DNA from: an uncultured delta proteobacterium
GTDB taxonomy: Bacteria; Myxococcota; Myxococcia; Myxococcales; Myxococcaceae
DNA length: 64,000 bases
Assembly (NCBI GenBank): GCA_963796055.1
Contig: CAWCKH010000004.1
Location: forward strand, 2,336,001 to 2,400,000
Direction: 5' to 3'
Shown here: one piece after another, positions 45,891-63,608 of the stretch
How the letters are laid out: each line of letters starts with the position of its first letter
Numbering within the stretch: the first letter of the stretch is position 1
Notes under the pieces: generated by a model
The model's database searches: none
Told to the model about the DNA's origin: nothing
The model's input: only the letters and a program-made list of their open reading frames with translations
Position numbers and translations under genes: made by a program

Positions 45891-47050
<1,160 letters not shown>

Positions 47051-47481: not shown

Positions 47482-47940
47482 TCAAATTGCGCCGAGCTGA
47501 AGGAGCAGCTCTCGGTGTAATCGTCGGCGCTCGGAGCTGAGCGGGAGATCGGCGAGGATCAACCGGCGCTGAGCTTCCTCGTTCTCGGCGACCAGTCTCG
47601 CCAGCCGACCCAGCATCCGGGGAAGGTAGGTCGACTTCTCGTGGCAGAGCTGCGCCCAGACCCCCTCGGTCTGCTCCAGAATCCTCTCGCGGTTCCGGCG
47701 AACCCGACCGAGGAACTTCTCGAGCTCCCGGTTGTCCTCGCAGAGCACCAGCAACTTCCAGTCCGCGACCAGATGTCGCTCCAGCCTGACCCGGTACGCC
47801 CCGAACCGCTTCCTGGCCGTCTCGAACGAGCCAGCGGCGGCGAGCGTCCCGACGTCGACCAGGGCGACGCGTAGCTGGTGGTGCTCGGACTCGAGCTGTC
47901 GCCAGATTTGACTCTCGATGGAGGAGTCTGGAGTCCTCAC
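47482..47940 (-). CDS. Hemerythrin-like helical protein (degenerate ligand set)
   Basis: L..EH..L and LERHL pattern; later His/Glu ligands not evident. Confidence 0.45.
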   Translation of the reverse strand: MRTPDSSIESQIWRQLESEHHQLRVALVDVGTLAAAGSFETARKRFGAYRVRLERHLVADWKLLVLCEDNRELEKFLGRVRRNRERILEQTEGVWAQLCHEKSTYLPRMLGRLARLVAENEEAQRRLILADLPLSSERRRLHRELLLQLGAI

Positions 47941-47971
47941 CTACGTCGCCACCCTTTCACGAAGGACGTCG

Positions 47972-48138
47972 GGCAAGAACCACGCCAGCTGAAGAAACTA
48001 CCCGTGCGAACCGCGACGGACGGCAGAGCTTGCGCATGCAAGCAGGCGGCGACGCATGTCCTGCGCACTCGGTCCGGTTGGGCGATGGCACGCCCGGTCC
48101 GCCATCGCGGAGCCTGCGTCGGTGGTCCATCCGATGCA
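47972..48138. promoter_or_regulatory. Divergent sigma54 promoters with two CGCA-N5-TGCG-type enhancer sites
   Basis: Minus TGGCGTGGTTCTTGCC (47987-47972); sites 48021-48035 and 48052-48066; plus TGGTCCATCCGATGCA (48123-48138). Confidence 0.7.
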
Positions 48139-48178
48139 AATCATGGCTTCACTTCGCGCTTCGCTCTCGGAGGTCGCC

Positions 48179-48655
48179 ATGAGGCTGATGGAAATCATGA
48201 CCACGGACGTGCGGACCGCCTCGGCGACGGAAGATGCGGAGAAGGCGTTCCAGCGAATGCGTAATGGGCGAATCCGGCATCTCGTCGTGATGAACGGACG
48301 CCGGGTGGTGGGCGTGCTCTCGGAACGGGACGTCGGTGGGTCGCGCGGCAGCGGAGTGCGCGCTGGCAAGACCGTGGGCGAGCTGATGTCGGGCCAGGCC
48401 ATCACCGCCTCTCCGACGACGACCGTTCGTCAGGCGGCGAATCTGCTCCGCGCTCGGAACATCGGCTGCCTGCCCATCGTCGAGGATGGCGAGCTCGAAG
48501 GGATCGTCACCGTGACGGACGTGCTGGAGCTCCTGGGCAGGCAGACCCAGCTCTCGCCCACTGCCAGCTCCCGGTTCAAGCCGCAACACGGCTCCAAGTG
48601 GAAGCCGATTCGCCGAGTGGCGCGCTCCCAGCGTCCACCCTTGTTCCCGAGGTAG
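48179..48655 (+). CDS. CBS-pair domain protein
   Basis: IMTT.V, IRHLVV, GVLSERD, IGCLPIV, GIVTVTD; GGAGG RBS. Confidence 0.9.
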   Translation: MRLMEIMTTDVRTASATEDAEKAFQRMRNGRIRHLVVMNGRRVVGVLSERDVGGSRGSGVRAGKTVGELMSGQAITASPTTTVRQAANLLRARNIGCLPIVEDGELEGIVTVTDVLELLGRQTQLSPTASSRFKPQHGSKWKPIRRVARSQRPPLFPR

Positions 48656-48657
48656 TC

Positions 48658-49326
48658 GTGAACGGTTTCGTCGATCGCGAAGACGCGGGCCGCAGGCTGG
48701 CGGCGCAGCTCAGCTCCTACGCGGCCGAGCGTCCCATCGTTCTGGCTCTTCCCCGAGGGGGCGTTCCGGTGGGTTACGAGATTGCCCGGGCGCTGCATGC
48801 ACCGCTCGACGTGTGGGTGGTCAGGAAGGTCGGGGTTCCCTGGCATCCCGAGCTCGGCGCCGGCGCCGTGGCCGAAGGAGGATACGTCCATCTCAACCAG
48901 GACGTCCTCGAGCACATCGGGCTTTCGGAGGCAGAGCTCGCCAAGATCGTCCAGAGCAAGCAGCGCGAGGTCCAAGAGCGGGTGCGGCTGTTCCGGGGGG
49001 ATCACCCGCCGCCAGTCCTTCGCGACCGAACGGTCATCGTGGTCGACGACGGGATCGCGACCGGTGGCACGGTGCACGCCGCGATTCGGTCGATCCGCGC
49101 GCAGGGGCCGAAGGCGATCGTGCTCGCGGTGCCGGTGGCCAGTCCCGAGGTGGTCGAAGTGCTCGGACGCGAAGTGGACGGTCTCGTTTGCTTGCGAATG
49201 CCCCCTGACCTCTACGCCATCGGCGTCTGGTACGTGAACTTCAGCCAGGTCTCGGATGACCAGGTAGCCCGTCTCCTCGACCGCGCTCGGCGGGACCAGA
49301 CCGAGGCCCAGGATGCCGTCGCCTGA
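48658..49326 (+). CDS. Putative phosphoribosyltransferase (Rv0571c/Rv2030c N-domain type)
   Basis: F.DR.DAGRRLA, LALPRGGVPV, VVDDGIATGGT, F.QVSD. Confidence 0.92.
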   Translation: MNGFVDREDAGRRLAAQLSSYAAERPIVLALPRGGVPVGYEIARALHAPLDVWVVRKVGVPWHPELGAGAVAEGGYVHLNQDVLEHIGLSEAELAKIVQSKQREVQERVRLFRGDHPPPVLRDRTVIVVDDGIATGGTVHAAIRSIRAQGPKAIVLAVPVASPEVVEVLGREVDGLVCLRMPPDLYAIGVWYVNFSQVSDDQVARLLDRARRDQTEAQDAVA

Positions 49327-49990
49327 GAGCGGAGCCCGCAAGGAGAGCCTGGTCATCCCTGCCGGCGGAGTGGAGGTCGAAGGCGACCTGACGATTCCTG
49401 ACGGTGCGCGCGGGCTCGTCCTGTTCGCTCACGGAAGTGGCAGCAGCCGCAAGAGCACGAGGAATCGGTTTGTGGCGCAGGTGCTCCGCGAACGAGAGCT
49501 CGGAACCCTGCTCTTCGACCTCTTGACCGCCGCCGAGGAGAGGCGAGACGCCATCGATGCCCACCTGCGCTTCGACATCCCGCTGCTCGCGAGCCGCCTC
49601 GGTGAGGTCACGGACCGGATGCGACAGTCTGGTCCCGGCAGGGAGCTTTCCATCGGTTACTTCGGGGCGAGCACCGGTGCAGCGGCAGCATTGATCGCGG
49701 CGGCAGAGCGCCCCCGCGACATCGGTGCCGTCGTCTCCCGGGGTGGTCGGCCAGACCTCGCCATTGAGGCACTCGCTCGCGTCCGCGCACCAACGCTGCT
49801 CATCGTCGGTGGCGCGGACACGACGGTGCTCGAGCTGAACCGCGAGGCGCTGGCGCGGATCCCGGGGCCCAAGCAGCTCACGGTGATTCCGGGAGCGACC
49901 CATCTCTTCGAGGAACCCGGTGCTCTGGAAACGGTGGCTCGCCTCGCGGGGGATTGGTTCGTGGAGCACCTGGGAACGCCGCCGGTCTGA
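49313..49990 (+). CDS. Dienelactone-hydrolase-like alpha/beta hydrolase
   Basis: FAHGSGSSR, GYFGASTG, VSRGGRPDL, GATHLFEEPG. Confidence 0.92.
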   Translation: MPSPESGARKESLVIPAGGVEVEGDLTIPDGARGLVLFAHGSGSSRKSTRNRFVAQVLRERELGTLLFDLLTAAEERRDAIDAHLRFDIPLLASRLGEVTDRMRQSGPGRELSIGYFGASTGAAAALIAAAERPRDIGAVVSRGGRPDLAIEALARVRAPTLLIVGGADTTVLELNREALARIPGPKQLTVIPGATHLFEEPGALETVARLAGDWFVEHLGTPPV

Positions 49991-50027
49991 GCGAGGCTGC
50001 CCGACTCTTCCATCGTTTGCCCGAGGT

Positions 50028-51230
50028 TCAGGGCTCCGACTGCCGGAGTGCTTCCCGGGAGCGGAACGGCTGGCGCTGCGTTCGTCGCCCCTGGCGAACC
50101 GCGGTCTCGAACATCACCAGCTCGCCGATGTTCTCCGGGGTGACGATTCCGAGGACTTCCTTGTCCACCGTGACCACGAGGGTGGACGGCTCGTGCTGGC
50201 CGAACCTGCTCAGCGCGCGTTCGAGCATCTCTCCGGGCTCGGCCGTTCCGAAGTCACGGTGCATGAAGTCCTCGACGGGAGCGGTCTTCCCGGCCTCGGC
50301 CAGGCCACGGACGAGATCGGCTCGGGTCAGGACCCCGACTGCTCGATGCTCCTCGACGACTGGAAAGTCCTGCTGGAACCCAGCCAGGGTCAGCTCCACG
50401 GCTCTGGAGAGAGGCTCCCGACGTCCGACGACCTGAAAGTCGGTGATCATCGCGTTCTGGACGGGCACGCCAGCGAGGGCCGATCTCAGCTGGACGAGCG
50501 AGGACTCATGCTGTGCGCCCATCCAGACGAAGAGCGCAATCAAGACCAGCACCGGATTGAACAGCAATCCGAGCAGCCCGAAGACCAGCGCGATGGCCTG
50601 TCCCAACCGAGCCGCCACCTCGGTTGCCCGGGCGTAGGGCATCCGCAGAGCAAGGGCTGCTCGAAGGACCCGTCCTCCATCCATGGGGAAGGCCGGGATC
50701 AGGTTGAAGACGGCCAGCGAGACGTTGATCCACATGAAGGTCGTGAGGAAGGGACCGCCGCCCGCTGACGCGCCCGAAAACCCCACCGGGCCGCCCGTGG
50801 CGCGGAGGATGCCGAATAGGCCCAGAGCGATGACCAGGTTGGTGAACGGACCGGCGAGGGCCACCAGCAGCTCTTGACCTGGCTTCTCGGGCAGTCTCTC
50901 TAGGCTCGAAACCCCACCGATCGGCAGCAGGATGATCTCTCGAGTCCGGATGCCGAACCGACGAGCGGTCAGCGCATGGCTGAGCTCGTGGAGGACGACG
51001 GTGCCGAAGACGGCCACGATGAGGCCCAGACCGCGAAGCGCCGCCTGGACTCCCCCCTGCAGCAGTGAGGTGAGCCCCACCCAGAGCAGCAGGAGGAAGA
51101 ACGTGGCATGAACATAGAGGGTGATGCCAAAGGGTCGGCCGATCTTCCAGGACCAGCGCCGTCGCGACCCGTCCAGGGCCGGTTCTTGGAGCCCGCTCGT
51201 TTCTTTGCCTGGTGGTTCGCTGCCGGTCAC
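50028..51230 (-). CDS. Site-2 protease (M50) with CBS domains
   Basis: LHELSH, LLPIGG, AGP, FNLIPAFPMDGGR, C-terminal CBS pair. Confidence 0.93.
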   Translation of the reverse strand: MTGSEPPGKETSGLQEPALDGSRRRWSWKIGRPFGITLYVHATFFLLLLWVGLTSLLQGGVQAALRGLGLIVAVFGTVVLHELSHALTARRFGIRTREIILLPIGGVSSLERLPEKPGQELLVALAGPFTNLVIALGLFGILRATGGPVGFSGASAGGGPFLTTFMWINVSLAVFNLIPAFPMDGGRVLRAALALRMPYARATEVAARLGQAIALVFGLLGLLFNPVLVLIALFVWMGAQHESSLVQLRSALAGVPVQNAMITDFQVVGRREPLSRAVELTLAGFQQDFPVVEEHRAVGVLTRADLVRGLAEAGKTAPVEDFMHRDFGTAEPGEMLERALSRFGQHEPSTLVVTVDKEVLGIVTPENIGELVMFETAVRQGRRTQRQPFRSREALRQSEP

Positions 51231-51619
51231 GGTCCAAACGCCTGACGGGATGCGCGGAGAAAATCCGTTTCGGTCACGATGCCCATCAAGTGCCCATCGC
51301 TGCCAACGACGGGGAGCGACCCGATCTGGTTGTCCAGAAGCAGGTCGATCGCGGTATGGGCCGGTGTGTCAGCCGTGACCGTGACCAGCTTCCTGGTCAT
51401 GTACTCGCCGACGCGCACCCGTTTCTTGCCCTTCGCCAATGCCTGGAGCACGTCCCGCGCCGACAGGATCCCGACGAGGTTGCCCTTCTCGTCGACGACG
51501 GGGACGTGCCGCATCCCCCCCAGCTTCATCTCCGCCTCGGCGGCACCGACCGAATCGCTGTCGCGAACAGTGACCAGCGCGGTCGACATCAGGCTCTCGA
51601 CCTTCATCGTGGCTGCCAT
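51227..51619 (-). CDS. CBS-pair domain protein
   Basis: MKV..LM, RHVPVVD, GILSARD, IGSLPVV, GIVTETD. Confidence 0.9.
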   Translation of the reverse strand: MAATMKVESLMSTALVTVRDSDSVGAAEAEMKLGGMRHVPVVDEKGNLVGILSARDVLQALAKGKKRVRVGEYMTRKLVTVTADTPAHTAIDLLLDNQIGSLPVVGSDGHLMGIVTETDFLRASRQAFGP

Positions 51620-51632
51620 GGTGTTCTCCGAG

Positions 51633-51774
51633 TGCAAGACAAGGACCCATCCCTGCGCTGAGCGGCCCAGCGGGGATGTGACTGGCCGCGCAAAGCTTGC
51701 GCGTCTAGTGATCCCTCTGAGAGGCCGCGCGGAGTGACCCCAGCGAGTGCTGGTCCGTGGCGCAGGTCTTGCCT
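51633..51774 (-). promoter_or_regulatory. Sigma54 promoter plus enhancer palindromes
   Basis: Minus GGGTCCTTGTCTTGCA (51648-51633); perfect GCGCA-AAGCT-TGCGC (51688-51702); GCGCA-GGTCT-TGCCT (51760-51774). Confidence 0.7.
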
Positions 51775-51819
51775 GGAAACGGTTGCGGCTCGAATCGAGC
51801 TGGCGCGCGCGGCGCGGGA

Positions 51820-51973
51820 CGCGCTCTTCCTCCCCCGGCGCGCCCACGGTGCCGAGTCCCGCGTTGGGGCCAGCTGCACAGGAAGCGGCCCAGAGACAGA
51901 GCAGGGCGAGACAGAGGAGCAGGGCGCGTGACCGGCGCTCTGGGAAGCCGCCCGATGCAGGTCTGGTGTTCAT
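51820..51973 (-). pseudogene. Probable truncated lipoprotein gene (N-terminus only)
   Basis: ATG 51973, hydrophobic stretch and WAASC lipobox then AAGPN; coding signal fades into the promoter region; 3' boundary approximate. Confidence 0.35.
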
Positions 51974-51987
51974 GCCTGATCTCGGTC

Positions 51988-53742
51988 TCAGAGCGACGCT
52001 CTGAGCTCGTTGGGCGTGCCGAGGTGACGGTGCCCGTGCAGCCTCCCCTCGAGCTGTCGCAGACCAAGCGTGTTCAGGACGTCTCCGCGCTCGAGCCACC
52101 CGCGGCGAGCCATCCAGACCCCATAGCGTAGGTTGCCCAGCTGGCTGGCGTGGTGGGCGTCGGTGGAAATGACCATGGCGACACCCGCCTCCTTGGCCAG
52201 CCGGCAATGCTTGTCATCGAGGTCCAGTCGCTCCGGCATGGCGTTGACTTCGAGCGCCACCCGTTGCTCGCGGGCGACCTCCAGCACCTTCTCGAAGTCG
52301 AAGGCATAGGCGTCCCGCAGCCCGAGCTGACGTCCGCTGGGGTGCCCGAGCACGTCGACGACCCCCGAGCGCATCGCGGCGATCATCCGCTGGGTGATCT
52401 TCCTGGGTGGGTCGGTGAAATGAGAATGGATGCTGGCCACGACGCAGTCGAGCCCGCGCAGGACGTCGAGCGGCAGGTCCAGCGTTCCGTCCTGGAGGAT
52501 GTCCACCTCGACCCCGGTCAGCAGGCCAGGCGCATCCTTTCGTTGCAGACCGAAGCGCTTGATCGCGAGCGCGTGTGCGCGCATCTGGGCAGGGCCGAGA
52601 CCGAGCGGCCGCGACTTCGAGTGATCGGTGATCGCCAGGTACTCCCGCCCGAGGCGTCCTGCCTCCTTGCAGAGCTCCTCGAGAGACGAGTGGCCATCGG
52701 AGGAGGCCTCGGAGTGGACGTGCAGGTCTCCTCGGACGTCCTTCTCCTCGATCAGCCGGGGCAGGCGTCCCTCCTCCGCGGCCTCGAGCTCGCCCGCGCC
52801 TTCACGCAGCTCGGGCGGAATCCAGGGCAGCCCCACCGCCCGGTAGACGTCCTGTTCGGTTTCGCCTCCGAGCCGCTTCCCTTGGCGGTCGAAGACGCCG
52901 TACTCGCTGAGCTTGAGGCCACGCCGCATGGCCCGGGTCCGAAGCTCGATGTTGTGGGCCTTGCTGCCGGTGAAGTAGTGCAACGCAGCTCCGAACGACT
53001 CGGGTGGCAGGATCCGCAGATCGGCCTGGAGCCCGCTCTTGAGACGGGCGGTGCACTTGGTCGGGCCAGTCGCGGTCAGTGCCTCCACTTCGGGCGCGTC
53101 CCGGAACGCGCGGATGACCTCGTCCGCGCTCGCGGCCGAGACCAGGAGATCGATGTCTCCGATCGTCTCCCGTCTGCGACGGATGCTGCCGGCCACCTCG
53201 GCGGCGCGGACGTGCGGCACCTTGCGCAGCCGCTCCGCAATCGACTCCGCGGTCGCCAGCGCTCGATGGAGGGGAACTCTGCCCTTGCGTGCCTGGTATC
53301 GACCCAGCGCGAGCAGGATCGCCGCCACCCTCTTGGCTCCCATCCGGGGAAGCCTCTCCATCGACCCGTCCCGGCACGCCTTCTCCAGGGCCGCGAGCTC
53401 CTTCACGTGCAGTCGCTTCCAGGCCAGAGAAGCCGTCTTCGGACCGATTCCCTCCACCCTCAAGAGCTCCAGCACCCCCGGGGGGACCTTCGCCAGCAGC
53501 TGGTCGTGCTCGCGAAAGCGACCGGTGCTCAGCAGCTCCTCGATGTGCGCGGCGATGCGTTCGCCGATCGAGGGAAGCTCGGTCAGCTTCCCCTCTCGCC
53601 ACAGCTCGGAGACGGGGGTGGGGAGGAGATCCACGATCTGTGCGGCCTGCCGATACGCGCGTGCCTTGAAAGCGTTTCCGCCGGTCAGCTCGAGCAGATC
53701 GGCCACCTCGGCGAGGACCTGGGCAACGTCGGCGTTCTCCAT
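51988..53742 (-). CDS. polX: DNA polymerase X / PHP 3'-5' exonuclease
   Basis: N.FKARAY, AGSIRRRRETIGDIDLL, ADLR, HYFTGSKAHN; PHP DLHVHS, TDHS, GHP.GR, STDAH. Confidence 0.96.
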   Translation of the reverse strand: MENADVAQVLAEVADLLELTGGNAFKARAYRQAAQIVDLLPTPVSELWREGKLTELPSIGERIAAHIEELLSTGRFREHDQLLAKVPPGVLELLRVEGIGPKTASLAWKRLHVKELAALEKACRDGSMERLPRMGAKRVAAILLALGRYQARKGRVPLHRALATAESIAERLRKVPHVRAAEVAGSIRRRRETIGDIDLLVSAASADEVIRAFRDAPEVEALTATGPTKCTARLKSGLQADLRILPPESFGAALHYFTGSKAHNIELRTRAMRRGLKLSEYGVFDRQGKRLGGETEQDVYRAVGLPWIPPELREGAGELEAAEEGRLPRLIEEKDVRGDLHVHSEASSDGHSSLEELCKEAGRLGREYLAITDHSKSRPLGLGPAQMRAHALAIKRFGLQRKDAPGLLTGVEVDILQDGTLDLPLDVLRGLDCVVASIHSHFTDPPRKITQRMIAAMRSGVVDVLGHPSGRQLGLRDAYAFDFEKVLEVAREQRVALEVNAMPERLDLDDKHCRLAKEAGVAMVISTDAHHASQLGNLRYGVWMARRGWLERGDVLNTLGLRQLEGRLHGHRHLGTPNELRASL

Positions 53743-53768
53743 CGACGGAGGCCTCCATCTCTCGGCCC

Positions 53769-53878
53769 TGCAAACACGGCACCATCCGGATGCGGGTCCC
53801 GGTCAGTGGAGTGGCAGTGCAGGATCTGCGCAGGGTACCGCCCTCGACGGCTCAGCTCGCCGGGGAGGGTTTCTTGCA
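53769..53878. promoter_or_regulatory. Divergent sigma54 promoters sharing one enhancer palindrome
   Basis: Minus TGGTGCCGTGTTTGCA (53784-53769); GTGCA-GGATC-TGCGC (53817-53831); plus GGGAGGGTTTCTTGCA (53863-53878). Confidence 0.7.
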
Positions 53879-53914
53879 CGTCTTCCGACGGAACCCTCAC
53901 CCGGGAGGTCCGCA

Positions 53915-54502
53915 ATGCAGGTGCCTCTCCAAATCAGTCATCTTCACGCTGCTCCCTCGGAACCACTCGACAAGCTCATCCGGGAGCGAGCGGCCGAGCT
54001 GGAGCAGTTCTATCCACGCATTACCGGCTGCCATGTCTGGATCGAGCACCCCGGTCAGCACCATCGAAGAGGCAAGGGCGCGCACTTTCGGGTGCGCATC
54101 GAGCTCTCCGTTCCCAGCAAGAAGCTCGTCGTCTCCCGGGACCCGGCGGCTCATCGGCCCAACGAGGATGTGTACCTGGCGACGAGCGAGGCCTTTCACG
54201 AGATGCGCCGGCAGCTCCAGGATTACGCGCGCCTGCAACGTGGCGACGTGAAGGCCAGCATCCGGCCTCCGCATGCCCGAGTGGCGCGGCTGCATCCCGA
54301 AGAGGGCTTCGGGTTTCTGGAGACTGCCGACGGGCGCGAGATCTACTTCCATCGTGCCAGCGTGCTGGGCGGTGGATTCGATCGGCTCACCGTCGGGAGC
54401 GAGGTTCGGTTCTCCGAGGAGCCCGGTGAGAAGGGTCCACAAGCGAGCTCGGTTCAGCTGGCGGGGGAGGCCCACGCGCCCGGGGATGAACCGGGGAGCT
54501 GA
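53915..54502 (+). CDS. HPF/RaiA ribosome-associated protein fused to cold-shock domain
   Basis: MQVPLQI...I..C.V..E....H....F.VRI; C-terminal GFGFLET.DGREIYFH.....F..L..G..V.F..E.GEKGPQA. Confidence 0.88.
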   Translation: MQVPLQISHLHAAPSEPLDKLIRERAAELEQFYPRITGCHVWIEHPGQHHRRGKGAHFRVRIELSVPSKKLVVSRDPAAHRPNEDVYLATSEAFHEMRRQLQDYARLQRGDVKASIRPPHARVARLHPEEGFGFLETADGREIYFHRASVLGGGFDRLTVGSEVRFSEEPGEKGPQASSVQLAGEAHAPGDEPGS

Positions 54503-54554
54503 AGCGAGCCTCCACATCGCCCCAGCGCGGCGCGCCAGCGGCCACCGCCCGTCA

Positions 54555-56532
54555 TCACTTCATCGGGTGAGCACGGCGCCCCGCAGAGCCTTCGAGGGGA
54601 AGAGGGTGCACCCCTTGAGGCCCTTTCTGTTCGCCAGGTCGAAGAGGGGTTCCACCCCGCTGCTCACGTTGCCGGCCAGAAGGCTGATGGTCCGGGTCCC
54701 GCTGGAGGGGCGTGGGCCGCGTAGGAGGCCTGACTCCCGGAGCGGGTCGACGATGGGGCGGGGGATTCCCTGATGAGTGCTGCGCGCGCTGGCCGGAGTG
54801 CCGCGCCCTCCCTGCTCGCTGCCGGTACATCTCGAGGATCTCCTCATCCGTGGTCGCGTCCTGCGGCCCCTTGTCCGGGCGCCAGCGGCCGGTGAAGCGC
54901 GGGAACCGCAGGGCGAGCCCCATCCCCTCGGGAAGCTCCGCCCGGCCCGCGGTGTGTGTCGGGCTGCGGGTGATCTCCCCGCCGAGCACCTCCAGAACCA
55001 CCACCGGTTCGAACCAGACGTCGGCCTTCAAGCTCCAGTCCAATCGAGGATCGGGTTCCGCTCGCTCGTATCGGCGCATCCGTCGCGGAAGCGCGGCCAG
55101 CTCCTCGTCGCTGAACCCTGTTCCGCACTTGCAGACCGTGCGAAAGACGTCGCTTCGCGGATCGTAGGAGGCCAGGAGAAGTGCACCGTACGTGCCGGCT
55201 CGTCGACCCTTCCCGTGGAGTGCCCCCACCACCACCAGGTCGAGCGGTTCCTTCATCTCGGCCCGGTATTCCCGCTTGAGCTTGATCCACTGCCAGCCCC
55301 GGGCCCCGGCGCGGTACGTCCCCTCGGCGTCCTTGCAGACCAGGCCTTCACATCCAGCGCGGAGCGCTTGATGAAAGAACGCGTCGAGCTCCTCGGGCGT
55401 GTGAGCCTCGCGGCTGGTGGCGAGGCGAACCTCATTCCCGAGGACCAGCAGACGCTCGAGCTCTCTACGCCGGATCCGGAGCGGACTCGAGGTGAGGTCC
55501 TTGCCGTCGACCAGCAGCACGTCGAAGAGGAACAAGACCGTCGGGATCCGCTCCACGGCCTCGGCGACGCCATGCTTCCGTCGCCGCGGCATCAGCTGCT
55601 GGAAGGGGAGCAACCTCCCCGTCTTCCGGTCGACGGCCACGACCTCGCCCTCGACGATCAGCTGTCTCGCTCCAAGTGAGCGGCGGGCCGCATCCACGAC
55701 GTCCGGGTACTGCTCGGTGACCCTCTCCAGACGTCGGGAGATGAGCTCGACGTGCTCGCCGTTGCGATGGATCTGGAGCCGTTCGCCGTCGTACTTGTAC
55801 TCGGCAATGCAGCGATTGCCGAGCTTGGCGACGATGTCCTCCACGCTGTACAGGCGCTCGGCGAGCATCGGACGGATGGGCTTGTCGACCGTGGCTCGGA
55901 TCTCCTCCAGCGCCCGTGGCCCCCGCTCCGCAAGGGCCCTCGCCGCGGAGGCGAGATTCTGCGGTCAAGTTGTAGGCCCGCTCCGCGTTCGCCGGCGGTG
56001 CACCGAAGGCCTCGACCAGACCCTCGAGCACGGTGGCATCGCCCACGCCGATCCGGAGCCGCCCGGTCACCGTCCGCAGCAGATAGCGCGCCTCCAGAGG
56101 GGTGGCTCTGGTGAGAAGCGCGCGCAGGAGATCCAGCTTCAGCGACTGGGAGCCCTTTCCGGCCAGCAGTGCGATGCGCTCGAAGGACCCGTAGACCTCC
56201 TCGACCGAGAGCGGCGGGGCAACGGCCTGGTGGGCTTGCATCAAGTGCTGGGCGGCGTCGCCCAGATCTCCCCGGCGCCGAGCCTCACGGGAGACCGCCA
56301 GGTCCGAGGTCCCCGCAGCTGCCGCCACTGCCCGGAGCGCCAGCTTCTCGCCCAGCCCGAGTTCCACTCCTTCCCAGTCGGGCCTCAGCTTGCCCTGAAT
56401 CAGGAAGACGACCTTGGCGATGACCCGAGCCGGTGTGTGGGCGAGGAGGCGCGCCAGCTCGGCGGTGACCTGCAGCCGGGAGCCAGTGCTCTCGATCCGG
56501 GAGTAGACCTCGGTGAGACTCCTGTAGAGCAT
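54555..56532 (-). pseudogene. lig: ATP-dependent DNA ligase (archaeal/eukaryal ligase I type), one +1 frameshift
   Basis: DBD from ATG 56532; extra A at 55957-55958; then IRPMLAER, EYKYDGER, EGLVCK, WIKLKREY, LRFPRF; 3' end runs on over the nrdJ remnant. Confidence 0.9.
54560..54771 (-). pseudogene. nrdJ: Remnant of class II ribonucleotide reductase
   Basis: TISLLAGNVSSGVEPLF joined directly to GLKGCTLF....GAVL-stop; large internal deletion. Confidence 0.7.
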
Positions 56533-56556
56533 CGGTCGACCTTCAGAGCTGACGCG

Positions 56557-56705
56557 TGCATGGGGCGCGCCGGAACACCGGATGCGCCGATGAAGTCTGC
56601 CCGCAGAGATTGCGCGAACAGCACGGGAGGATTCGGGGTCGAATTCAGCTCTGCCGCTGCAGACGGAGGCATCGCTCACGCGTCCAAGTTGGAACGATCG
56701 TTGCT
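56557..56705. promoter_or_regulatory. Divergent sigma54 promoters (lig / hsp20) with enhancer palindrome
   Basis: Minus CGGCGCGCCCCATGCA (56572-56557); CCGCA-GAGAT-TGCGC (56601-56615); plus TGGAACGATCGTTGCT (56690-56705). Confidence 0.75.
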
Positions 56706-56751
56706 CCTCGCTGATTGCCCGGATTGGCACGGGCCTCACAAGGAGTGATTT

Positions 56752-57243
56752 ATGTCCAGCATCACTGTGCGCCGGGAAGGCGGCGCGAAGCATCCGGCCC
56801 CCGTCGTCTCCACGCCCGATTTCTTCAGCCCGATTCGCGACCTCATCGAGCCGTTCAAGCGGCTGGCCCTCGCACCCTTCGGCGACTTTCGGTTCGTCTC
56901 GTTCGTTCCAGCCTTCGAGATCAAGGAGACCAAGGAAGGCTATCTGTTCACGGCCGACGTCCCGGGCGTGGAGCAAGCGAATCTCGAGATCTCCGTGACC
57001 GGCAATCGACTCACGGTGAGCGGGAAGCGCGAGGAGGCGAAGGAGGAACGCGGCGAGAGCTTCTACGCCTGCGAGCGCAGCTACGGAAGCTTCACCCGTT
57101 CCTTCAGCCTGCCGGAGGGAAGCGACGTGGAACACATCCACGCGGATCTGAAGGCAGGCGTCCTGACCATCAGCGTTCCGAAGAATCCGGAGATCAAGAC
57201 CAAGAAGGTCGAGATCAAGGCGGAGCAGGCGGCCAAGGCCTGA
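56752..57243 (+). CDS. Hsp20/alpha-crystallin small heat-shock protein
   Basis: P.FEIKET, ADVPGV, L.VSGKR, ERSYGSF.RSF.LP, GVLTI.VPK, VEI. Confidence 0.95.
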   Translation: MSSITVRREGGAKHPAPVVSTPDFFSPIRDLIEPFKRLALAPFGDFRFVSFVPAFEIKETKEGYLFTADVPGVEQANLEISVTGNRLTVSGKREEAKEERGESFYACERSYGSFTRSFSLPEGSDVEHIHADLKAGVLTISVPKNPEIKTKKVEIKAEQAAKA

Positions 57244-57300
57244 GGAAGAGGAGTGTAGGGGACCGGTCGGGAGGTACACCTCGACGAACTCGGAGCGCTG

Positions 57301-58200
57301 ATGAGGAAGAGCATCGTCTGTGGGCCGGAGATGGCCCACATGGGTTCGGCACTCGCCCGTGAGCTCGGCGAGCCACTCTGTCAGGCGATGGTCGAACATT
57401 TCCCTGACGGGGAGCTGCACGTCGTCTTGCCCGAGCGGGTGGCTGGACACGAGGTGTTCCTGGTCCAGTCCCTCGTTTCACCAGCGGGGGAGCGGCTCAT
57501 CGAGCTGAGCCTGCTTGCCGACGCCTGTCGGCGCGCGCGCGCCAGCAGTCTGACGTTGTTCCTCCCGTACTTTGCCTACGCGCGGCAGGATCGGTGTACC
57601 CGAGACGGCGAGGCGCTCGGTGGAGAGGTGCTGGCGGGGCTCGTCTCCAGAGCGGGTTTCGACCGGATCCTCGCCGTCGACCTTCACTCCGACGCGGCCC
57701 TGGGCTGGTTCCGAGCACCGCTGCAGCACCTGAGCGTGGTGACCGACCTGGCCGAGTCGCTGCGCGCGTCGTTGCCCTCGGCCTCAGTCGTGGTCTCACC
57801 GGACCTCGGAGGGGCGAAGCGGGCGGAGCGGGTGGCAAAGCGCCTCGAAAGACCGCTTGCGATCGTTCACAAGACTCGAGGCGAACGAGGGGTGGTGGTC
57901 CACCAGGTTCTGGGAGACGTGCGAGGTCGTGCCGTTCTCATCGTCGACGACCTCATCTCCACCGGAGGGACGATCGAGGCGGCGACCACGGCGCTGCGTC
58001 AGGCCCAGTGCGAACCGAGTGTCACGGTTCTGGCAACGCATGCCTTGCTCGTGGGCGATGCAGTCGACCGTCTCCGGAGGACCGGGATCAGGTGTCTCAT
58101 CCACTCAGATTCCGTACCCCCCAGGGCGCTCCCCTTTCCGGAGATCGCCGTGCCGCTCGCTCCGATCGTCGCCTCTGCCATCCGCCGCGACACCTTCTGA
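57301..58200 (+). CDS. prs: Ribose-phosphate pyrophosphokinase
   Basis: FPDGE, PYFAYARQDR, VDLHS, SPDLGG, IVDDLISTGGT, ATHA. Confidence 0.93.
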   Translation: MRKSIVCGPEMAHMGSALARELGEPLCQAMVEHFPDGELHVVLPERVAGHEVFLVQSLVSPAGERLIELSLLADACRRARASSLTLFLPYFAYARQDRCTRDGEALGGEVLAGLVSRAGFDRILAVDLHSDAALGWFRAPLQHLSVVTDLAESLRASLPSASVVVSPDLGGAKRAERVAKRLERPLAIVHKTRGERGVVVHQVLGDVRGRAVLIVDDLISTGGTIEAATTALRQAQCEPSVTVLATHALLVGDAVDRLRRTGIRCLIHSDSVPPRALPFPEIAVPLAPIVASAIRRDTF

Positions 58201-58230
58201 CGAAGTCCAGACGACGCATTCGTCCCGGCG

Positions 58231-58470
58231 TCACGCCCGGTCGCGCATCTCGCGGATTCCCTCGGCCGAAGCGCAATGGGCAGAGCAGAACATCTGGGTG
58301 CCCTTCTCCATGCCGTGGCCGAGGATCCGGACGTGGCAGTGGGCGCACCGCGGAGCGAGCGCTTCGATGGCGCACTCGAACGAGTCAAAGGTGTGAGTTT
58401 TCCCCTGGACGACGACCTGGAAGGCCTTGTCGTAGTCGTTCCTGCAGACCTCGCATTTCTGCGCTTGCAT
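58231..58470 (-). CDS. Small Cys/His-rich metal-binding protein (metallothionein-like)
   Basis: CEVC.NDYDK, FDSFECAI..LAP.C.HC...I.GHG.E.....FC..HCA. Confidence 0.8.
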   Translation of the reverse strand: MQAQKCEVCRNDYDKAFQVVVQGKTHTFDSFECAIEALAPRCAHCHVRILGHGMEKGTQMFCSAHCASAEGIREMRDRA

Positions 58471-58544
58471 GGTGATTCCTCTCTGTCACTCGGCCGCAAC
58501 CGGATGAACCGGCCCGGCCCTCGGCGACGAGCAGCTCCGGGGCC

Positions 58545-58815
58545 TCAGGCGCTCGGGCGAGGTGTCGGCACGCTCGACCGCGGTGCGCTGATTGCTGCAA
58601 CCGTCCCCGCCACTTCCTCGGGCGTGACCCCGTTGACGGTCTTGCTGCTCCGGAGGCGATGCGCGAGATCGTTCACGGTGACGATTCCCTTCAGGGCTCC
58701 CGTGCCGTCGACCACCGGGATGTCCTGTTCCCACATCTTCTTTCGCAGCCTGTTGCAGCGAATCCTCCGGCCGGCACGTGACCAGTCGCTTGCTCATGAT
58801 CTCCTCAACGCGCAT
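58545..58815 (-). pseudogene. Frameshifted, internally deleted CBS-domain gene
   Basis: GGAGG + MRVEEIMSK..VTC.PEDSL..AA; extra A at 58741-58743, then KMWEQD IPVVD..G..KGIVTVND. Confidence 0.75.
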
Positions 58816-58866
58816 GACGGACCTCCTTTTCCGGTCGTCAAGCGGGTGTACTGCTCCGCCATCGGT

Positions 58867-58961
58867 TGGCCTCCCGCATGCAGCGTCAACGGTGCAGCTC
58901 CAGCGGGTCCTGCGACCGCAAACCCTGCGGAGGAAGGGGTTATTTTCTGCAGAGATTGCGT
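58867..58961 (+). promoter_or_regulatory. Sigma54 promoter and two enhancer palindromes upstream of groEL
   Basis: TGGCCTCCCGCATGCA (58867-58882); CCGCA-AACCC-TGCGG (58916-58930); CTGCA-GAGAT-TGCGT (58947-58961). Confidence 0.6.
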
Positions 58962-59001
58962 TTCTTCTCCCCCGCACCGGAGTCGTGACCAGGTGTGAAT
59001 C

Positions 59002-60618
59002 ATGACGGCCAAACATCTCCTCTTCCGGACCACTGCCCAGGAGAAGGTCCTCCGAGGCCTCTCCCAGCTGGCCGACGCGGTCCGGGTCACCCTCGGACCC
59101 ACGGCCAAGGCCATCCTCATCGAGCGAAAGTGGGGACGGCCGCTGGTGAGTGATGACGGGGTGACCATTGCCAAGGAGTTCGAGCTCGAGGACCCGGAGG
59201 AGAACCTGGGCGTCCAGCTGGGCCGAGAGCCTGCGGAGCGCACCCAGGCGGCGGTGGGGGACGGAACGACCACCGCCACCCTCCTGACCCATGCCCTGGT
59301 TGCCGAAGGCTGGCGCAACGTGGTCGCCGGGGCGAGCGCGATCGAGCTGAAGCGTGGCCTCGAGCACGGGCTGGCCCTGGTGGTGGCCGGGCTGAAGGGT
59401 GTGTCTCGCCCGGTCCAGAGCCGGAAGGAGAAGGCGCAGGTCGCGACCATCTCCGCGCACGGCGATACGACCATCGGCAACCTGGTTGCTGACGCGATCG
59501 AGAAGGTGGGCGGGGAGGGCGTGATCTCGGTGGAGGAGGCGAAGGGGACGGAGACCGCACTCGAGGTGGTGGAGGGAATGCAGTTCGACCAGGGCTACCT
59601 CTCACCCTACTTCGTGACCGATGCCGAGCGGATGGAGTGCGTGCTCCAGGACGCGATGGTGCTCCTCTACGGCAAGCGGATCTCCACCCTCGAGGGCTTG
59701 GTCCCGGTCCTGGAGCAGGTGGTGAAGACCGGTCGGTCTCTGCTGGTCGTGGCCGAGGACGTGGACGGCGAGGCGCTGGCCACGCTGGTGGTGAACAAGG
59801 TCCGGGGGACGCTGCACTGCGCGGCGGTGAAGGCCCCGGGCTTCGGCGACCGGCGGAAGGCCCTGCTCGAGGACATGGCCGTTCTCACCGGCGGCCAGGT
59901 GCTGGCGGAGGAGCTGGGCGTGAAGCTGGAGACGGTCAACCTCTCCATGCTCGGGAGGGTCCAGCGCGTGGTGCTGGACCGGGAGCACACCACGCTCGTG
60001 GGCGGGGCCGGGGACAAGCAGGCGATCCAGGCCCGACTGGAACAGCTTCGCCGGGAGATCAAACGAACCACCTCCGACTACGACAAGGAGAAGCTCCAGG
60101 AACGGCTGGGTAAGCTCGCCGGCGGGGTGGCGGTCATCCGGGTGGGCGCTGCCTCCGAGACCGAGCTGAAGAGCCGGAAGGACGCTTTCGATGACGCGAT
60201 CAACTCCACCCGCGCCGCGGTGGCGGAGGGGATTGTCCCCGGGGCAGGGCTGGCCTTCCTCCGAGCCCGCGAACTCCTGTCGAAGGAGGAGCCGAAGCTC
60301 GAGGGAGACCGGCGCACCGCGGTGCGGATCCTCGGGACGGCGCTGGAGATCATCACCCGGCAGATTGCCCAGAACTCTGGAATGGACCCGGGCGTGGTGG
60401 TGGACCGGATGCGCAGCGGGACGGGGAGCTTCGGACTGGATGCCTCCCGAGGAGCGTACGTCGACCTCACCGAGGCCGGGGTCATCGACGCCACCAAGGT
60501 GCTCCGGGTCGCGCTGGAGAACGCGGTTTCCACCGCCGGCGTGCTCCTCTTGGCCGAGGGGACCATGACCGAAGTCCGCTCCAAGAAGGACGAGGAGAAG
60601 GCGCCGCTCACCGAGTAG
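59002..60618 (+). CDS. groEL: Chaperonin GroEL paralog
   Basis: VRVTLGP, DGVTIAKE, GDGTTTAT, GMQFD.GYLSPYF, KAPGFGDRRK, KLAGGVAVI; no GGM tail. Confidence 0.96.
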   Translation: MTAKHLLFRTTAQEKVLRGLSQLADAVRVTLGPTAKAILIERKWGRPLVSDDGVTIAKEFELEDPEENLGVQLGREPAERTQAAVGDGTTTATLLTHALVAEGWRNVVAGASAIELKRGLEHGLALVVAGLKGVSRPVQSRKEKAQVATISAHGDTTIGNLVADAIEKVGGEGVISVEEAKGTETALEVVEGMQFDQGYLSPYFVTDAERMECVLQDAMVLLYGKRISTLEGLVPVLEQVVKTGRSLLVVAEDVDGEALATLVVNKVRGTLHCAAVKAPGFGDRRKALLEDMAVLTGGQVLAEELGVKLETVNLSMLGRVQRVVLDREHTTLVGGAGDKQAIQARLEQLRREIKRTTSDYDKEKLQERLGKLAGGVAVIRVGAASETELKSRKDAFDDAINSTRAAVAEGIVPGAGLAFLRARELLSKEEPKLEGDRRTAVRILGTALEIITRQIAQNSGMDPGVVVDRMRSGTGSFGLDASRGAYVDLTEAGVIDATKVLRVALENAVSTAGVLLLAEGTMTEVRSKKDEEKAPLTE

Positions 60619-61906
60619 CTGCGAGGGGAGCGAGGCGCGGTCCGGGTCTCCCGGCGCCCCCTCCCTGTTCAGCAGTCGCCATCCCGCAGTTCCGGCTCGG
60701 GTTGCGGCGTTCTCCGTCAGCCCCGGAGCACTCCGCAGCAAGGGCGTTCCGAGCGCTCCTCGTGGTCGCTCTCGCGGCGGCCGCCGGGCCGGCGTCTCCA
60801 CGCTCGATGTAGACCCACAGTGCCTGGAGCCCTGCGGGTCCAGGCAGAATCCCGTGCCAGCCCTCGGGCAACTCGGGCGGTGCCCAGCGGAAGAGCCAGG
60901 CGGCATCCGCGGGCGAGAGATTGATGCAGCCGTGAGAGACCGCGGTCCCGAAGCGATCGTGCCAGTTGGCTCCATGGAGTGCGGTCTCTTCACCAAAAAA
61001 GAGGGAGTGGGGAACCTCTTCCACCAGGTAGGCGGCTCGGCGGCCGCGCATCTCCCCGTGCCGGAGCTTCAGCCAGACCCGGAAGAGCCCGGTCGGCGTT
61101 TCCCAGCCCCGCTTCCCGGTGGACACCAGGGTCGCGAAGACGAGGTGGTCACCCTCATACGCGGTGAGCACCTGCTCGAGCGCGTCCACGTGCACCCAGC
61201 GTTCCTGTGGGCCGATGCCGGCAGGTCGCGGATGCGCATGCGAAAGGCGAACCGCGTCTCGGGGGAGGGTTCCGCGAGACGTCTGGACCTTGGAGCCGAT
61301 GGAGATCACCTCGAGCGCCGTGTAGCGCTCCAGCACCACCGTGGCTCCCTTCGGATCGTCTGGCGCGTGCACCCGAACTCGGCGCAGCACCCACGCCAGC
61401 TCCGGGGGCGGCTCGGAGACTCCTTCAAGGGCGCTTCCGACAAGGAGCTTCACATCCGCTCGAGCAAGGAAGGTCCCATCCGGGCGTTCCAACCATTCGC
61501 TCGGACCGGCCGTGGGAGGCTTGAAGGCGAGGACATGTCCCCGGGCATGGTGACCGACGACTCTGGCCTCGCTTGACGCGCTGGAGTGAACCTCCGCCGA
61601 GCGGGCAATGACGCGCCCGTAGAGATAGTCGAAGGGCTCCCCGGTGCCCTCCGGGGGGGCCGCCGCCAAATATCGGCTGCGCACCGCCCCGAAGGGGTGA
61701 AGCAGAGTCCAGCCCTCGGGTGCCCCGCTCTCCTCGGCCACCTGCACCCGCTCTCCCCGCTCCAGCAGCCCGATGACCGGGCTGGTCGCACTCGGCGACT
61801 GCCGAATGTAGGCACGCTCCACGTCGAGCCAGGCCTCCGATGCCTCTGCGGCAACAGAGAGAAGCATCAAGACCGCAACCGGGGACCAGACCAAGGCTCT
61901 CTCCAA
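60608..61906 (-). CDS. L,D-transpeptidase (YkuD) with SH3-like domains
   Basis: Signal peptide; VSTGK...TPTG.F, ALHGA.WH..FG..VSHGCINL. Confidence 0.88.
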   Translation of the reverse strand: MERALVWSPVAVLMLLSVAAEASEAWLDVERAYIRQSPSATSPVIGLLERGERVQVAEESGAPEGWTLLHPFGAVRSRYLAAAPPEGTGEPFDYLYGRVIARSAEVHSSASSEARVVGHHARGHVLAFKPPTAGPSEWLERPDGTFLARADVKLLVGSALEGVSEPPPELAWVLRRVRVHAPDDPKGATVVLERYTALEVISIGSKVQTSRGTLPRDAVRLSHAHPRPAGIGPQERWVHVDALEQVLTAYEGDHLVFATLVSTGKRGWETPTGLFRVWLKLRHGEMRGRRAAYLVEEVPHSLFFGEETALHGANWHDRFGTAVSHGCINLSPADAAWLFRWAPPELPEGWHGILPGPAGLQALWVYIERGDAGPAAAARATTRSARNALAAECSGADGERRNPSRNCGMATAEQGGGAGRPGPRLAPLAATR

Positions 61907-61931
61907 GAGGAGTGGCGTTGGGTCTCCCTGG

Positions 61932-62073
61932 TGCGAAGGCCGTGCCGCGTCCGGGCTTCATCCAGCGCCGCGTGGCGGGCAAGTCACGCGTTGCTGAAAC
62001 CCTCCGCTCGAACGCGCAGGCTTTGCGTGAGCCGTCACCACGGATGAACCGGCTCTCTGGCATGGGTGATGCT
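61932..62073. promoter_or_regulatory. Divergent sigma54 promoters (ldt / BON) with enhancer palindrome
   Basis: Minus CGGCACGGCCTTCGCA (61947-61932); GCGCA-GGCTT-TGCGT (62014-62028); plus TGGCATGGGTGATGCT (62058-62073). Confidence 0.75.
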
Positions 62074-62114
62074 CTTCAGGGTGGCGAATCGCTAACCGAG
62101 AAAGGGACACCGAC

Positions 62115-62768
62115 ATGAGAACCGATGCAGACCTGCAGAGGGCAGTGCAAGAGGAGCTCTCGTTCGAGCCGACCATCGTCGCCACCGACATCGGGGTCAC
62201 GGTCAAGAATGGGATTGTCACCCTCTTCGGGACGGTTCCTGATTACACCAGCAAGTTGGCGGCCGAGAGGGCGGCAGAGCGCGTCGCCGGCGTGCGTGCG
62301 CTGGCCAAGGATCTCACTGTAAAGCTGCCCGGAGAGAGTCGGCGCTCGGACTCGGAGATCGCCGAGGCAGCGCTGAAGGCGTTTGCCTGGGACGTGCAGG
62401 TCCCAGAAAAGCGTCTCACGTTGGAGGTACAGAACGGGTTCGTGACGCTCAAGGGTGAGGTGAACTGGTATTTCCAGAGGAAGGCGGCCGAGGAGAACGT
62501 ACGGAAGCTGACCGGTGTCGTCGGGGTCAGCAATCAGATCACGATCAAGCCGAACCTCACCGCAAAGGAGGTCCGGTCGAAGATCGAATCGGCACTTCAG
62601 CGGCGGGCAGTCCGTGATGCCCGGCAAATCATCGTCGACGTGGAGGGCCGAACGGTCACCCTACGCGGTGAGGTTCACTCCTGGGCGGAGCGGGAAGACG
62701 CAGAGCTCGCTGCCTGGGCGGCGGAAGGAATTTCCGAGGTGCGCGACGAGATCCGGATTCGACCCTGA
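62115..62768 (+). CDS. Triple BON-domain protein (OsmY-like, no signal peptide)
   Basis: Three I.V.V..G.VTL.G.V repeats. Confidence 0.92.
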   Translation: MRTDADLQRAVQEELSFEPTIVATDIGVTVKNGIVTLFGTVPDYTSKLAAERAAERVAGVRALAKDLTVKLPGESRRSDSEIAEAALKAFAWDVQVPEKRLTLEVQNGFVTLKGEVNWYFQRKAAEENVRKLTGVVGVSNQITIKPNLTAKEVRSKIESALQRRAVRDARQIIVDVEGRTVTLRGEVHSWAEREDAELAAWAAEGISEVRDEIRIRP

Positions 62769-62808
62769 GCCGCAAGGACTCGGGCTCATGCCCGGCAAGG
62801 AGATACCC

Positions 62809-63048
62809 ATGAGGGTCGAACAGCTCATGTCCCATCCGGTACGCACCTGCTCGGCGAGCGACATGCTCGATCGCGCGGCTCGAATCATGTGGGGCACGAC
62901 GTGGGGTGCATCATCGTCGAGTCGGATGGTCGGGGTAGATGGGATCATCACCGGTCGCGACATCTGCATGGCCGGCCGCTTCGCCGGCAGGGCACTCTGG
63001 GAGATCCCGGTTGGCGAGGTGATGTCCCGTCCGGTGGAGACGGTTCAC
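62809..63048 (+). pseudogene. Truncated CBS-domain gene with compensating frameshifts
   Basis: AGGAG + MRVEQLMS..V.TC; -1 near 62892 and +1 near 62933 hide HDVGCIIVESDGR; then GIIT.RDICMA; similarity stops near 63048. Confidence 0.7.
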
Positions 63049-63231
63049 TGGCCGAGATCTGTGACCCGACTGACTCGACGACAGATCTTTCCTGGCAGCG
63101 AAGGTGATTCGTCCTCGCGCTTAGCAATCGGCGCCATCACCTTCGCTGCGTCCGTCGCCTTGTTCCAGAAGCGCCTCGGCTAAGCGCCGCGTGAGCCCAC
63201 CCGCGCAAGTGAGCAGATAGGATCGCGCTCC

Positions 63232-63246
63232 ACGCAAGTCTTGCGC
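63232..63246. promoter_or_regulatory. Enhancer palindrome upstream of GlsB/YeaQ-like gene
   Basis: ACGCA-AGTCT-TGCGC; degenerate -24/-12 (CG-CATGCCTGAT-GC, 63287-63300). Confidence 0.55.
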
Positions 63247-63329
63247 ACAGGATTCGCAGACTGCGCCTGGTCTCCAGCACTTGCCGCGCATGCCTGATGC
63301 ATTCATGTGCGGAGGAAGAAGGTGTCGCC

Positions 63330-63608
63330 ATGACCATGTTCGCATTCCTGAGCTGGATCGTGCTCGGAGCGGTGCTCGGAGCGGTGCTCGCGACAGTCTG
63401 GAAGGAACGAGGACTTACCCTGGCCTGGGGGACCGCGATCGGCGGGGTCGGCGGAGTGGTGGGCGGGTTGATCGCTCGGTTCGTCTTCCCGGCCGGGGCG
63501 GTCTTCGACGGGTTGGCGCTGGCCGCTGCCCTCGTGGGTGCAGTGGTGGCCATGTTCATCGCCAAGTCCCGCGTGGAGCACACGGACCGGCCAGGCGCCA
63601 CGGTCTGA
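63330..63608 (+). CDS. GlsB/YeaQ/YmgE (transglycosylase-associated) stress membrane protein
   Basis: WIVLGA..G..A, G..GG.VGG, A.VGAVV; three TMs. Confidence 0.75.
   Translation: MTMFAFLSWIVLGAVLGAVLATVWKERGLTLAWGTAIGGVGGVVGGLIARFVFPAGAVFDGLALAAALVGAVVAMFIAKSRVEHTDRPGATV

Follow-up and report, generated by a model that had tools for sequence, protein, structure and literature searches.

A candidate NmpR/sigma54 low-oxygen regulon, densest in a gene island of an uncultured relative of Myxococcus xanthus

The stretch of DNA analysed here, hereafter the window, comprises 64,000 nucleotides from an uncultured delta proteobacterium of the Myxococcaceae (contig CAWCKH010000004.1 of assembly GCA_963796055.1, positions 2,336,001 to 2,400,000), and its right-hand part is a gene island with a palindrome repeated in its intergenic regions. 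I read these palindromes as boxes that would be bound by the genome's own NmpR orthologue, encoded on contig C5, which would activate sigma54 promoters of the island and of dozens of loci across the genome at low oxygen; I put the probability of this reading at roughly 85%. In M. xanthus, NmpR has the consensus GCGCA-N5-TGCGC and acts on seven sigma54-dependent promoters, covering 23 genes, that are induced in hypoxia (PMC11841059). An earlier note on the window had named this site, and correctly so. Its interpretation as a whole is partly supported: the system found here is likely an enlarged example of the known NmpR low-oxygen switch, which probably also controls hydrogenase and fermentation genes.

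The box and its promoter element

The repeated palindrome in the island is confirmed: all ten copies that had been listed are present, each with an intact GCA-N5-TGC core, and nine of the ten are within two mismatches of the NmpR site. Both of the pairs among them are, as claimed, exactly 31 bp apart. Genes were called over the whole genome with a purpose-made codon model (4901 genes), and for this reason the DNA termed intergenic includes some pseudogene DNA. The island's non-coding DNA (15 segments, 5505 bp) contains six boxes with at most one mismatch; 2000 dinucleotide shuffles averaged 0.26, and not one of them came to six. The core intergenic DNA of the window (22 segments, 4541 bp) contains none. 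Genome-wide, intergenic DNA holds 27 perfect boxes where 3.8 are expected and 79 with at most one mismatch where 28.8 are expected (20 shuffles each). The excess of perfect boxes is restricted to the 5-bp spacer, all other spacers from 0 to 12 giving one to six each. The island is the densest patch in the genome (eight boxes in 20 kb versus at most four anywhere else), and 11 of the 19 box pairs lying within 80 bp of each other genome-wide are spaced 29-31 bp, seven of them at 31. The box set goes beyond chance; weak single members, namely the palindromes at 58947 and 51760 and the promoter element at 61947, may be chance matches. The elements of the island, in window positions, are:

46300..64000, no strand: low-GC3 (GC at third codon positions) mosaic gene cluster, the island, continuing beyond the window to about +67,900
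47972..47987, minus strand: predicted sigma54 -24/-12 element, 42 and 73 bp from the centres of the next two boxes, kept in genome G043; faces a 152-aa (amino acid) gene (47482-47940) with no Pfam family
48021..48035, no strand: NmpR-type box, 2 mismatches, 31 bp from 48052; arms identical in G043
48052..48066, no strand: NmpR-type box, 1 mismatch; arms identical in G043
48123..48138, plus strand: predicted sigma54 element, 65 and 96 bp from these boxes, identical in G043; heads a CBS - phosphoribosyltransferase - alpha/beta hydrolase unit (48179-49990)
51632..51647, minus strand: predicted sigma54 element, 48 bp from the 51688 box; heads a CBS - M50 protease-CBS unit (50028-51619)
51688..51702, no strand: NmpR-type box, perfect; a perfect box also lies upstream of the homologous CBS gene in G018
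51759..51774, plus strand: probable sigma54 element (among the top 1.5% of matches in intergenic DNA), at 64 bp from the 51688 box; overlaps the palindrome at 51760 (2 mismatches)
53769..53784, minus strand: predicted sigma54 element, 41 bp from the 53817 box; faces PolX-PHP (51988-53742)
53817..53831, no strand: NmpR-type box, 1 mismatch, midway between divergent promoters; kept in G018 and two G043 copies
53863..53878, plus strand: predicted sigma54 element, 40 bp from the 53817 box; faces an HPF/S30AE-cold-shock fusion (53915-54502)
56557..56572, minus strand: predicted sigma54 element, 37 bp from the 56601 box; faces an ATP-dependent DNA ligase gene
56601..56615, no strand: NmpR-type box, 1 mismatch; box present in the same intergenic region of two G043 copies
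56690..56705, plus strand: best sigma54 match in the island, 83 bp from the 56601 box, kept in G043; heads Hsp20 - ribose-phosphate pyrophosphokinase (56752-58200)
58847..58861, minus strand: degraded sigma54 element, intact in G043, about 65 and 96 bp from the 58916/58947 pair; faces a degenerate CBS gene and a 79-aa Cys-rich gene (58231-58818)
58867..58882, plus strand: predicted sigma54 element; faces GroEL (59002-60618)
58916..58930, no strand: NmpR-type box, 2 mismatches, 31 bp from 58947; in G043 arms kept, spacer changed
58947..58961, no strand: NmpR-type box, 3 mismatches; arms nearly kept in G043
61932..61947, minus strand: possible sigma54 element, doubtful; faces an L,D-transpeptidase (60608-61906)
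62014..62028, no strand: NmpR-type box, 1 mismatch; kept in the paralogous copy on contig C7
62058..62073, plus strand: predicted sigma54 element, 38 bp from the 62014 box; heads a triple-BON protein (62115-62768) and a broken CBS gene (62810-63100)
63232..63246, no strand: NmpR-type box, 1 mismatch; kept in 4 of 4 aligned homologous loci
63286..63301, plus strand: sigma54-shaped element with CG replacing GG, 48 bp from the 63232 box, CG form in 5 of 5 aligned loci; faces a 92-aa membrane protein (63330-63608)

The ten oriented GG-N10-GC elements of the earlier note are likewise all there, but the bare pattern occurs 30.5 times per kb in the island and 24.9 times per kb in core intergenic DNA; at about 30 per kb its presence alone therefore proves nothing, and I rejected it as evidence, being too frequent in both. 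The observation that the combination of box and element went unseen in core intergenic DNA, and the proposed check by shuffling, hold for the boxes but not for the bare element, which is uninformative. Elements were scored with a hand-weighted sigma54 consensus, a score of at least 12 counting as a good match. On this scale all ten elements fall within the best 0.2-11% of the 17,937 GG-N10-GC matches in intergenic DNA. Good matches lie 30-130 bp from boxes at a rate of 0.54 per box, versus 0.10 at intergenic points drawn at random and 0.04-0.16 with the five control spacers, a fivefold enrichment. The nearest distance from box to element in that range is 37 bp and the commonest 41 bp, and the 41/72-bp geometry (box centres to element) is repeated at five promoters outside the island. 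No 10.5-bp helical period in the box-to-promoter distances was significant (Rayleigh p 0.47 for 43 distances, 0.11 for 77); among the distance signals, only the 41-bp peak stands.

Most island boxes lie 37-96 bp upstream of an oriented sigma54 match. Sigma54 promoters had been proposed for seven intergenic regions, and in six of them a canonical element near a box faces a gene, but the region of 63232 has the CG form only. Such CG-form elements, which lack the otherwise near-invariant GG, are kept upstream of small membrane protein genes and downstream of an NmpR-type box (in the window, near 5870 on C7, and at loci L144, L158 and L123); these proteins, with a weak Pfam match, I take to be GlsB/YeaQ-like. 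A general class of CG-type promoters was considered and rejected (10 near boxes versus 5 expected genome-wide), and the form is kept here as a local feature.

The palindrome at 51760, put forward as an activator site, overlaps the good sigma54 element at 51759, since any box with a G in front of it also forms a GG-N10-GC element, and it is more likely a sigma54 promoter than a site for the activator. I found no gene downstream of it, the stretch 51690-51990 having no homologue in the genome or the compared loci, and a scan of the window with Rfam at gathering score for a non-coding RNA behind it returned only the RNase P RNA gene (RF00010, 269 bits) at 11294-11704 on the minus strand. A tRNA search of loci L003 and L144 found none; for tRNAs the window was covered by the Rfam scan only. 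The orphan element faces about 210 bp (to 51990) with short purine-rich repeats, convergent on the end of polX. Nor can 58867 be kept with any confidence as the promoter of the 58916/58947 pair, because the boxes lie downstream of it; the pair's cognate promoter is likely the minus-strand element that faces the other way, toward the CBS gene, and is degraded here. The 79-aa Cys/His-rich protein in that direction (58231-58470, minus strand) is 94% identical in G043, has only a weak YHS-domain match and is possibly metal-binding. The element at 61947 is present as listed but doubtful as a promoter, since it sits at a rearrangement junction. The 152-aa gene at 47482-47940 looked similar to hemerythrin, but was rejected as one, having no Pfam or NCBIfam match.

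The activator locus and conservation across relatives

The earlier note expected the activator to be encoded outside the window, and proteins of the NmpR, NmpS and NmpU types were indeed found together on contig C5, which likely encodes the activator of the boxes. The genome has 33 strong Sigma54_activat matches and a single protoglobin match, a kinase at C5:204922-206094 that resembles the solved globin sensor 5OHE (E 2e-46). This nmpU-like gene is followed by those of an NmpT-like receiver protein, in which only one receiver domain scored, and an NmpS-like REC-kinase (a hybrid kinase), the nmpU-T-S-like set covering C5:204922-207814. Head to head with the nmpU-like gene is an intact REC-AAA-HTH activator gene (C5:203458-204867), whose product has the receiver domain, the AAA+ domain with a GAFTGA-type loop and the helix-turn-helix of an NmpR orthologue. 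Orthology was anchored on the locus layout of genome G023, not on a named M. xanthus sequence: the G023 nmp locus is arranged as in the published case, opening with a CBS gene and having a sigma54 site, two boxes that are 14 bp apart and, on the opposite side, nmpU-T-S; its NmpR has the C5 protein as best hit (68%, 624 bits; next 414). A scan of genome contigs with the activator gave 80 matches, mostly to distant activators (41-56%), and was set aside. Boxes flank this genome's own nmp locus as well as the nmp loci of relatives (8 of the 8 loci read). The sigma54 gene rpoN is intact on contig C4. On sequence criteria other than the number of sites per promoter, namely the site, the orthologue, the nmpU-T-S-like set and the sigma54 factor and element, membership of an NmpR regulon holds.

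A second Sigma54_DBD match, a candidate for a new sigma factor, was rejected as a partial rpoN copy (G000:C5:237679-238686, L005). It has a large internal deletion and lies between two inverted transposase modules, presumably IS66-like.

Genomes of the same genus hold the island's modules in other orders and places, mostly with an upstream box and often with a sigma54 match. In seven pairwise alignments, chosen where the regions align (those of 51688 and 56601, which align poorly, were left out), the box arms are identical at 84 of 90 positions, the spacers at 27 of 45 and the flanks at 614 of 957. I also counted the paired-box pattern, an N8 control and the C-terminal (HTH) region of NmpR in 59 genomes, hand-picked without regard to the motif. 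In family f1, paired boxes number 87 across the 20 genomes that have an NmpR HTH match, every one of which has at least one, versus four in three of the ten genomes without; the corresponding controls are 8 versus 9 for the N8 pattern and 33 versus 15 for the reversed pattern. Even inside genus g5 the numbers are 16 in four genomes with NmpR and two in four without. The NmpR-like HTH regions of G064, G073, G080, G097 and G137 lie in short frames (162-264 aa) that could not hold a whole AAA+ activator.

Predicted targets outside and inside the island

One sigma54 regulon across the island had been proposed. The NmpR-type boxes and sigma54 matches fit this in part, but given 79 intergenic boxes genome-wide an island-only regulon was rejected: the predicted regulon is genome-wide and the island only its densest patch. 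Domains outside the window were assigned for 68 proteins chosen from loci around sites. Paired boxes with an oriented sigma54 match, in the 41/72-bp geometry, precede the uptake [NiFe]-hydrogenase operon and hypF-C-D-E. A box with an oriented match also heads pyruvate:ferredoxin oxidoreductase (PFOR), 2-oxoacid:ferredoxin oxidoreductase, decaheme cytochrome, phosphofructokinase, V-type ATPase, a HemG-like protein and NapH/molybdopterin oxidoreductase, and a box with a weak or no sigma54 match precedes hypAB, feoAB, a copper ATPase, a cytochrome c-caa3 operon and hemerythrin.

Of the hydrogenase loci of relatives, 17 of 23 carry a box no more than 450 bp away (two of 25, with weak matches, were left out), versus 2, 0, 0, 7 and 2 for control spacers. 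In each of the six closest loci a sigma54 match accompanies a box of one mismatch or none; most loci of family f2 lack such a sigma54 match. These f2 promoters (L191-L193, L197, L199, L201-L204) have a single box about 165-175 bp before the match, mostly no sigma54 match, and after the box an AT-rich stretch that looks sigma70-like by eye. PFOR loci of relatives have a box within 300 bp in 15 of 28 cases (controls 2, 3, 0, 0 and 0), and in one of the 15 the sole box coincides with a sigma54 element. I found no FNR-like protein in the genome, where two Crp-type HTH matches exceed the cut-off and neither has an N-terminal Cys cluster, in a search that did not extend to other anaerobic regulators. 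There is likewise no genome-wide excess of FNR boxes of the relaxed TTGAT-N4-ATCAA type (three versus four for a control spacer).

The island itself has a median GC3 of 0.83 (16 genes) versus 0.93 in the core (39 genes). Its families include CBS proteins, phosphoribosyltransferase, alpha/beta hydrolase, M50 protease-CBS, PolX-PHP, an HPF-cold-shock fusion, ATP-dependent ligase, Hsp20, ribose-phosphate pyrophosphokinase, GroEL, L,D-transpeptidase and a BON protein; the part beyond the window adds RtcB, archease, cytidylyltransferase and ChaB, with a further perfect box and sigma54 element. With its ribosome hibernation factor, Hsp20, GroEL, CBS proteins, M50 protease, DNA and RNA repair enzymes and nucleotide salvage, the island holds what I call a dormancy kit. 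The HPF/S30AE and cold-shock domain fusion (53915-54502) is intact, has a predicted NmpR/sigma54 promoter and has homologues in G043 and G029. Most island genes are full length, GroEL being 95% identical to that of G043. Decay is seen in the ligase gene (frameshifted near 55930-55970 and followed by a ribonucleotide reductase remnant at 54554-54694), in two degenerate CBS genes and in an ATP synthase remnant; the ATP synthase and ribonucleotide reductase genes have intact forms in G043. The ATP synthase operon remnant (beta and epsilon pieces, 46346-47053) corresponds to a whole operon in G043 (L144 8904-16315) with an NmpR-type box upstream. Contig C7 holds another copy of the island at its end (C7:1-7660), in a more advanced state of decay, 87-94% identical in five blocks and with a different gene mix. 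A GAF-AAA activator stands at the island's right edge.

Mechanism, rival readings and known systems

In M. xanthus, oxygen-bound NmpU restrains NmpS, and at low oxygen NmpS phosphorylates NmpR (PMC11841059; PMC6211767). By analogy, NmpU would keep NmpS off here while oxygen is present, and NmpS would phosphorylate NmpR when it is absent. Phosphorylated NmpR would oligomerise on one or two boxes (spaced 31 bp, the one nearer the promoter often at 41 bp from its -24 GG) and open the sigma54 promoter; a single box would often serve promoters on both sides. Falling oxygen, likely the signal, as the earlier note supposed, would then lead NmpR to switch on about twelve island transcription units and dozens elsewhere.

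Several points weigh against this reading. Promoters described in M. xanthus have two NmpR sites, with a preferred gap of 14-15 bp, although pairs with gaps of 5 and 24 were bound too (PMC11841059); here a second box at 29-32 bp is absent from five of the seven island regions, and the pairs in the other two have a gap of 16 bp. A good sigma54 match lies near only 38 of the 79 boxes counted genome-wide, which is in line with about one third of the boxes being chance. The recognition helix of the C5 activator is STRTIQYR versus SVRKIQYR in most orthologues, a difference at two positions. Family f2 has NmpR in nine of nine genomes but only four paired boxes in total, and the co-occurrence of boxes with NmpR carries no p-value because related genomes are not independent samples. 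Parts of the island may be silent, because several genes are broken and one promoter is degraded.

The island could also be a decaying acquisition, its boxes inherited leftovers now out of use. Its low GC3, the broken ligase, CBS, ATP synthase and reductase genes, the degraded promoter and the decayed second copy on C7, which lacks one box, fit this; I nevertheless hold it to be very unlikely, with the arms conserved well above the flanks, most genes full length and the nmp locus intact. Of about the same low probability is that another of the roughly 33 sigma54 activators, or several, bind the boxes in response to a signal other than oxygen, such as stationary phase or energy stress. Candidates exist, among them the GAF-AAA activator at the island's edge and a paralogue at C4:2760371 that shares four recognition-helix residues with the C5 protein, and many island genes are general stress genes, but no box lies within 10 kb either side of that paralogue, and paired boxes track NmpR in family f1, within genus g5 too, and accompany the relatives' nmp loci. 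Chance matches in GC-rich DNA can practically be dismissed. The frequency of GG-N10-GC and the roughly 29 of 79 boxes expected by chance would suit them, but with the shuffles, the spacer specificity, the conservation and the company of NmpR against them they are already refuted for the box set as a whole.

That NmpR binds but that many single boxes repress or fine-tune, by blocking sigma54 or sigma70 polymerase, I consider unlikely. It would account for the 51759/51760 overlap and the GG-N10-GC that a preceding G creates, for boxes downstream of a sigma54 match (at 58867, in G018 L146 and G043 L144, and before PFOR in several f2 genomes) and for the f2 hydrogenase promoters that have a box but no nearby sigma54 match. 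Yet G is not enriched immediately before the box, most island boxes have their oriented match downstream, and every promoter tested in M. xanthus was activated (PMC11841059). Activation by NmpR remains the reading I prefer.

The site and the regulator are already known; by its predicted promoters, this case differs from the published one in size, spacing and its anaerobic and dormancy targets. Shared with M. xanthus NmpRSTU (PMC11841059) are the box with its intact core, the sigma54 promoters, an orthologous activator with nmpU-T-S-like neighbours and, as target classes, CBS, universal stress protein (USP), hemerythrin, P-type ATPase and haem synthesis. In contrast, there are about 50 excess boxes here (79 seen, 29 expected) versus seven promoters and 23 genes, pairs are mostly spaced 31 bp rather than 29-30, many single boxes serve divergent promoters, and nmpR lies head to head with nmpU and has the two recognition-helix changes. 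Hydrogenase, hyp, PFOR and decaheme cytochrome, predicted here, are not among the M. xanthus targets named in the text of PMC11841059, whose full gene list is in a figure. The genes under Nmp control in Anaeromyxobacter are stated there (2025) to be unknown, and I found no published NmpR regulon outside M. xanthus in the literature searched, which covered few subscription papers; supplements and figures of the Nmp papers may list more sites.

The island also resembles, by family name only, the hypoxia-responsive DosR regulon of Mycobacterium tuberculosis (PMC5309233; PMC7801807 for its DosR gene list only), which includes alpha-crystallin, the metalloprotease Rip3, a ribosome hibernation factor, RtcB, B12 ribonucleotide reductase and phosphoribosyltransferase, but which depends on DosR/DosS/DosT and another site, not on a sigma54 enhancer-binding protein. 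The lxa locus of Burkholderia cenocepacia (PMC3721108) is likewise a patchy cluster with one motif at many intergenic points and at outside loci, and shares alpha-crystallin, USP and nucleotide metabolism with the present system; its motif is TGA-N6-TCA of the Anr/Fnr type, for which neither protein nor box excess was found here.

The genome supplies a concrete list of predicted NmpR promoters in an uncultured relative that has anaerobic enzymes and no detected FNR, together with their geometry (31-bp pairs, 41/72 bp to the -24 GG). I would give even odds to a broader proposal: in myxobacteria with anaerobic enzymes, NmpR would take the part of FNR or DosR as master regulator of anoxia and would drive a metabolic switch (uptake hydrogenase, hyp, PFOR, decaheme cytochrome, FeoAB) together with a portable dormancy kit that moves as self-contained cassettes, each with one box between two divergent sigma54 promoters, and that is drawn from the same families as the kits under DosR in mycobacteria and under an FNR-type box in Burkholderia. 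The genome also suggests a common low-oxygen dormancy kit that may be rewired to whichever oxygen regulator its host uses.

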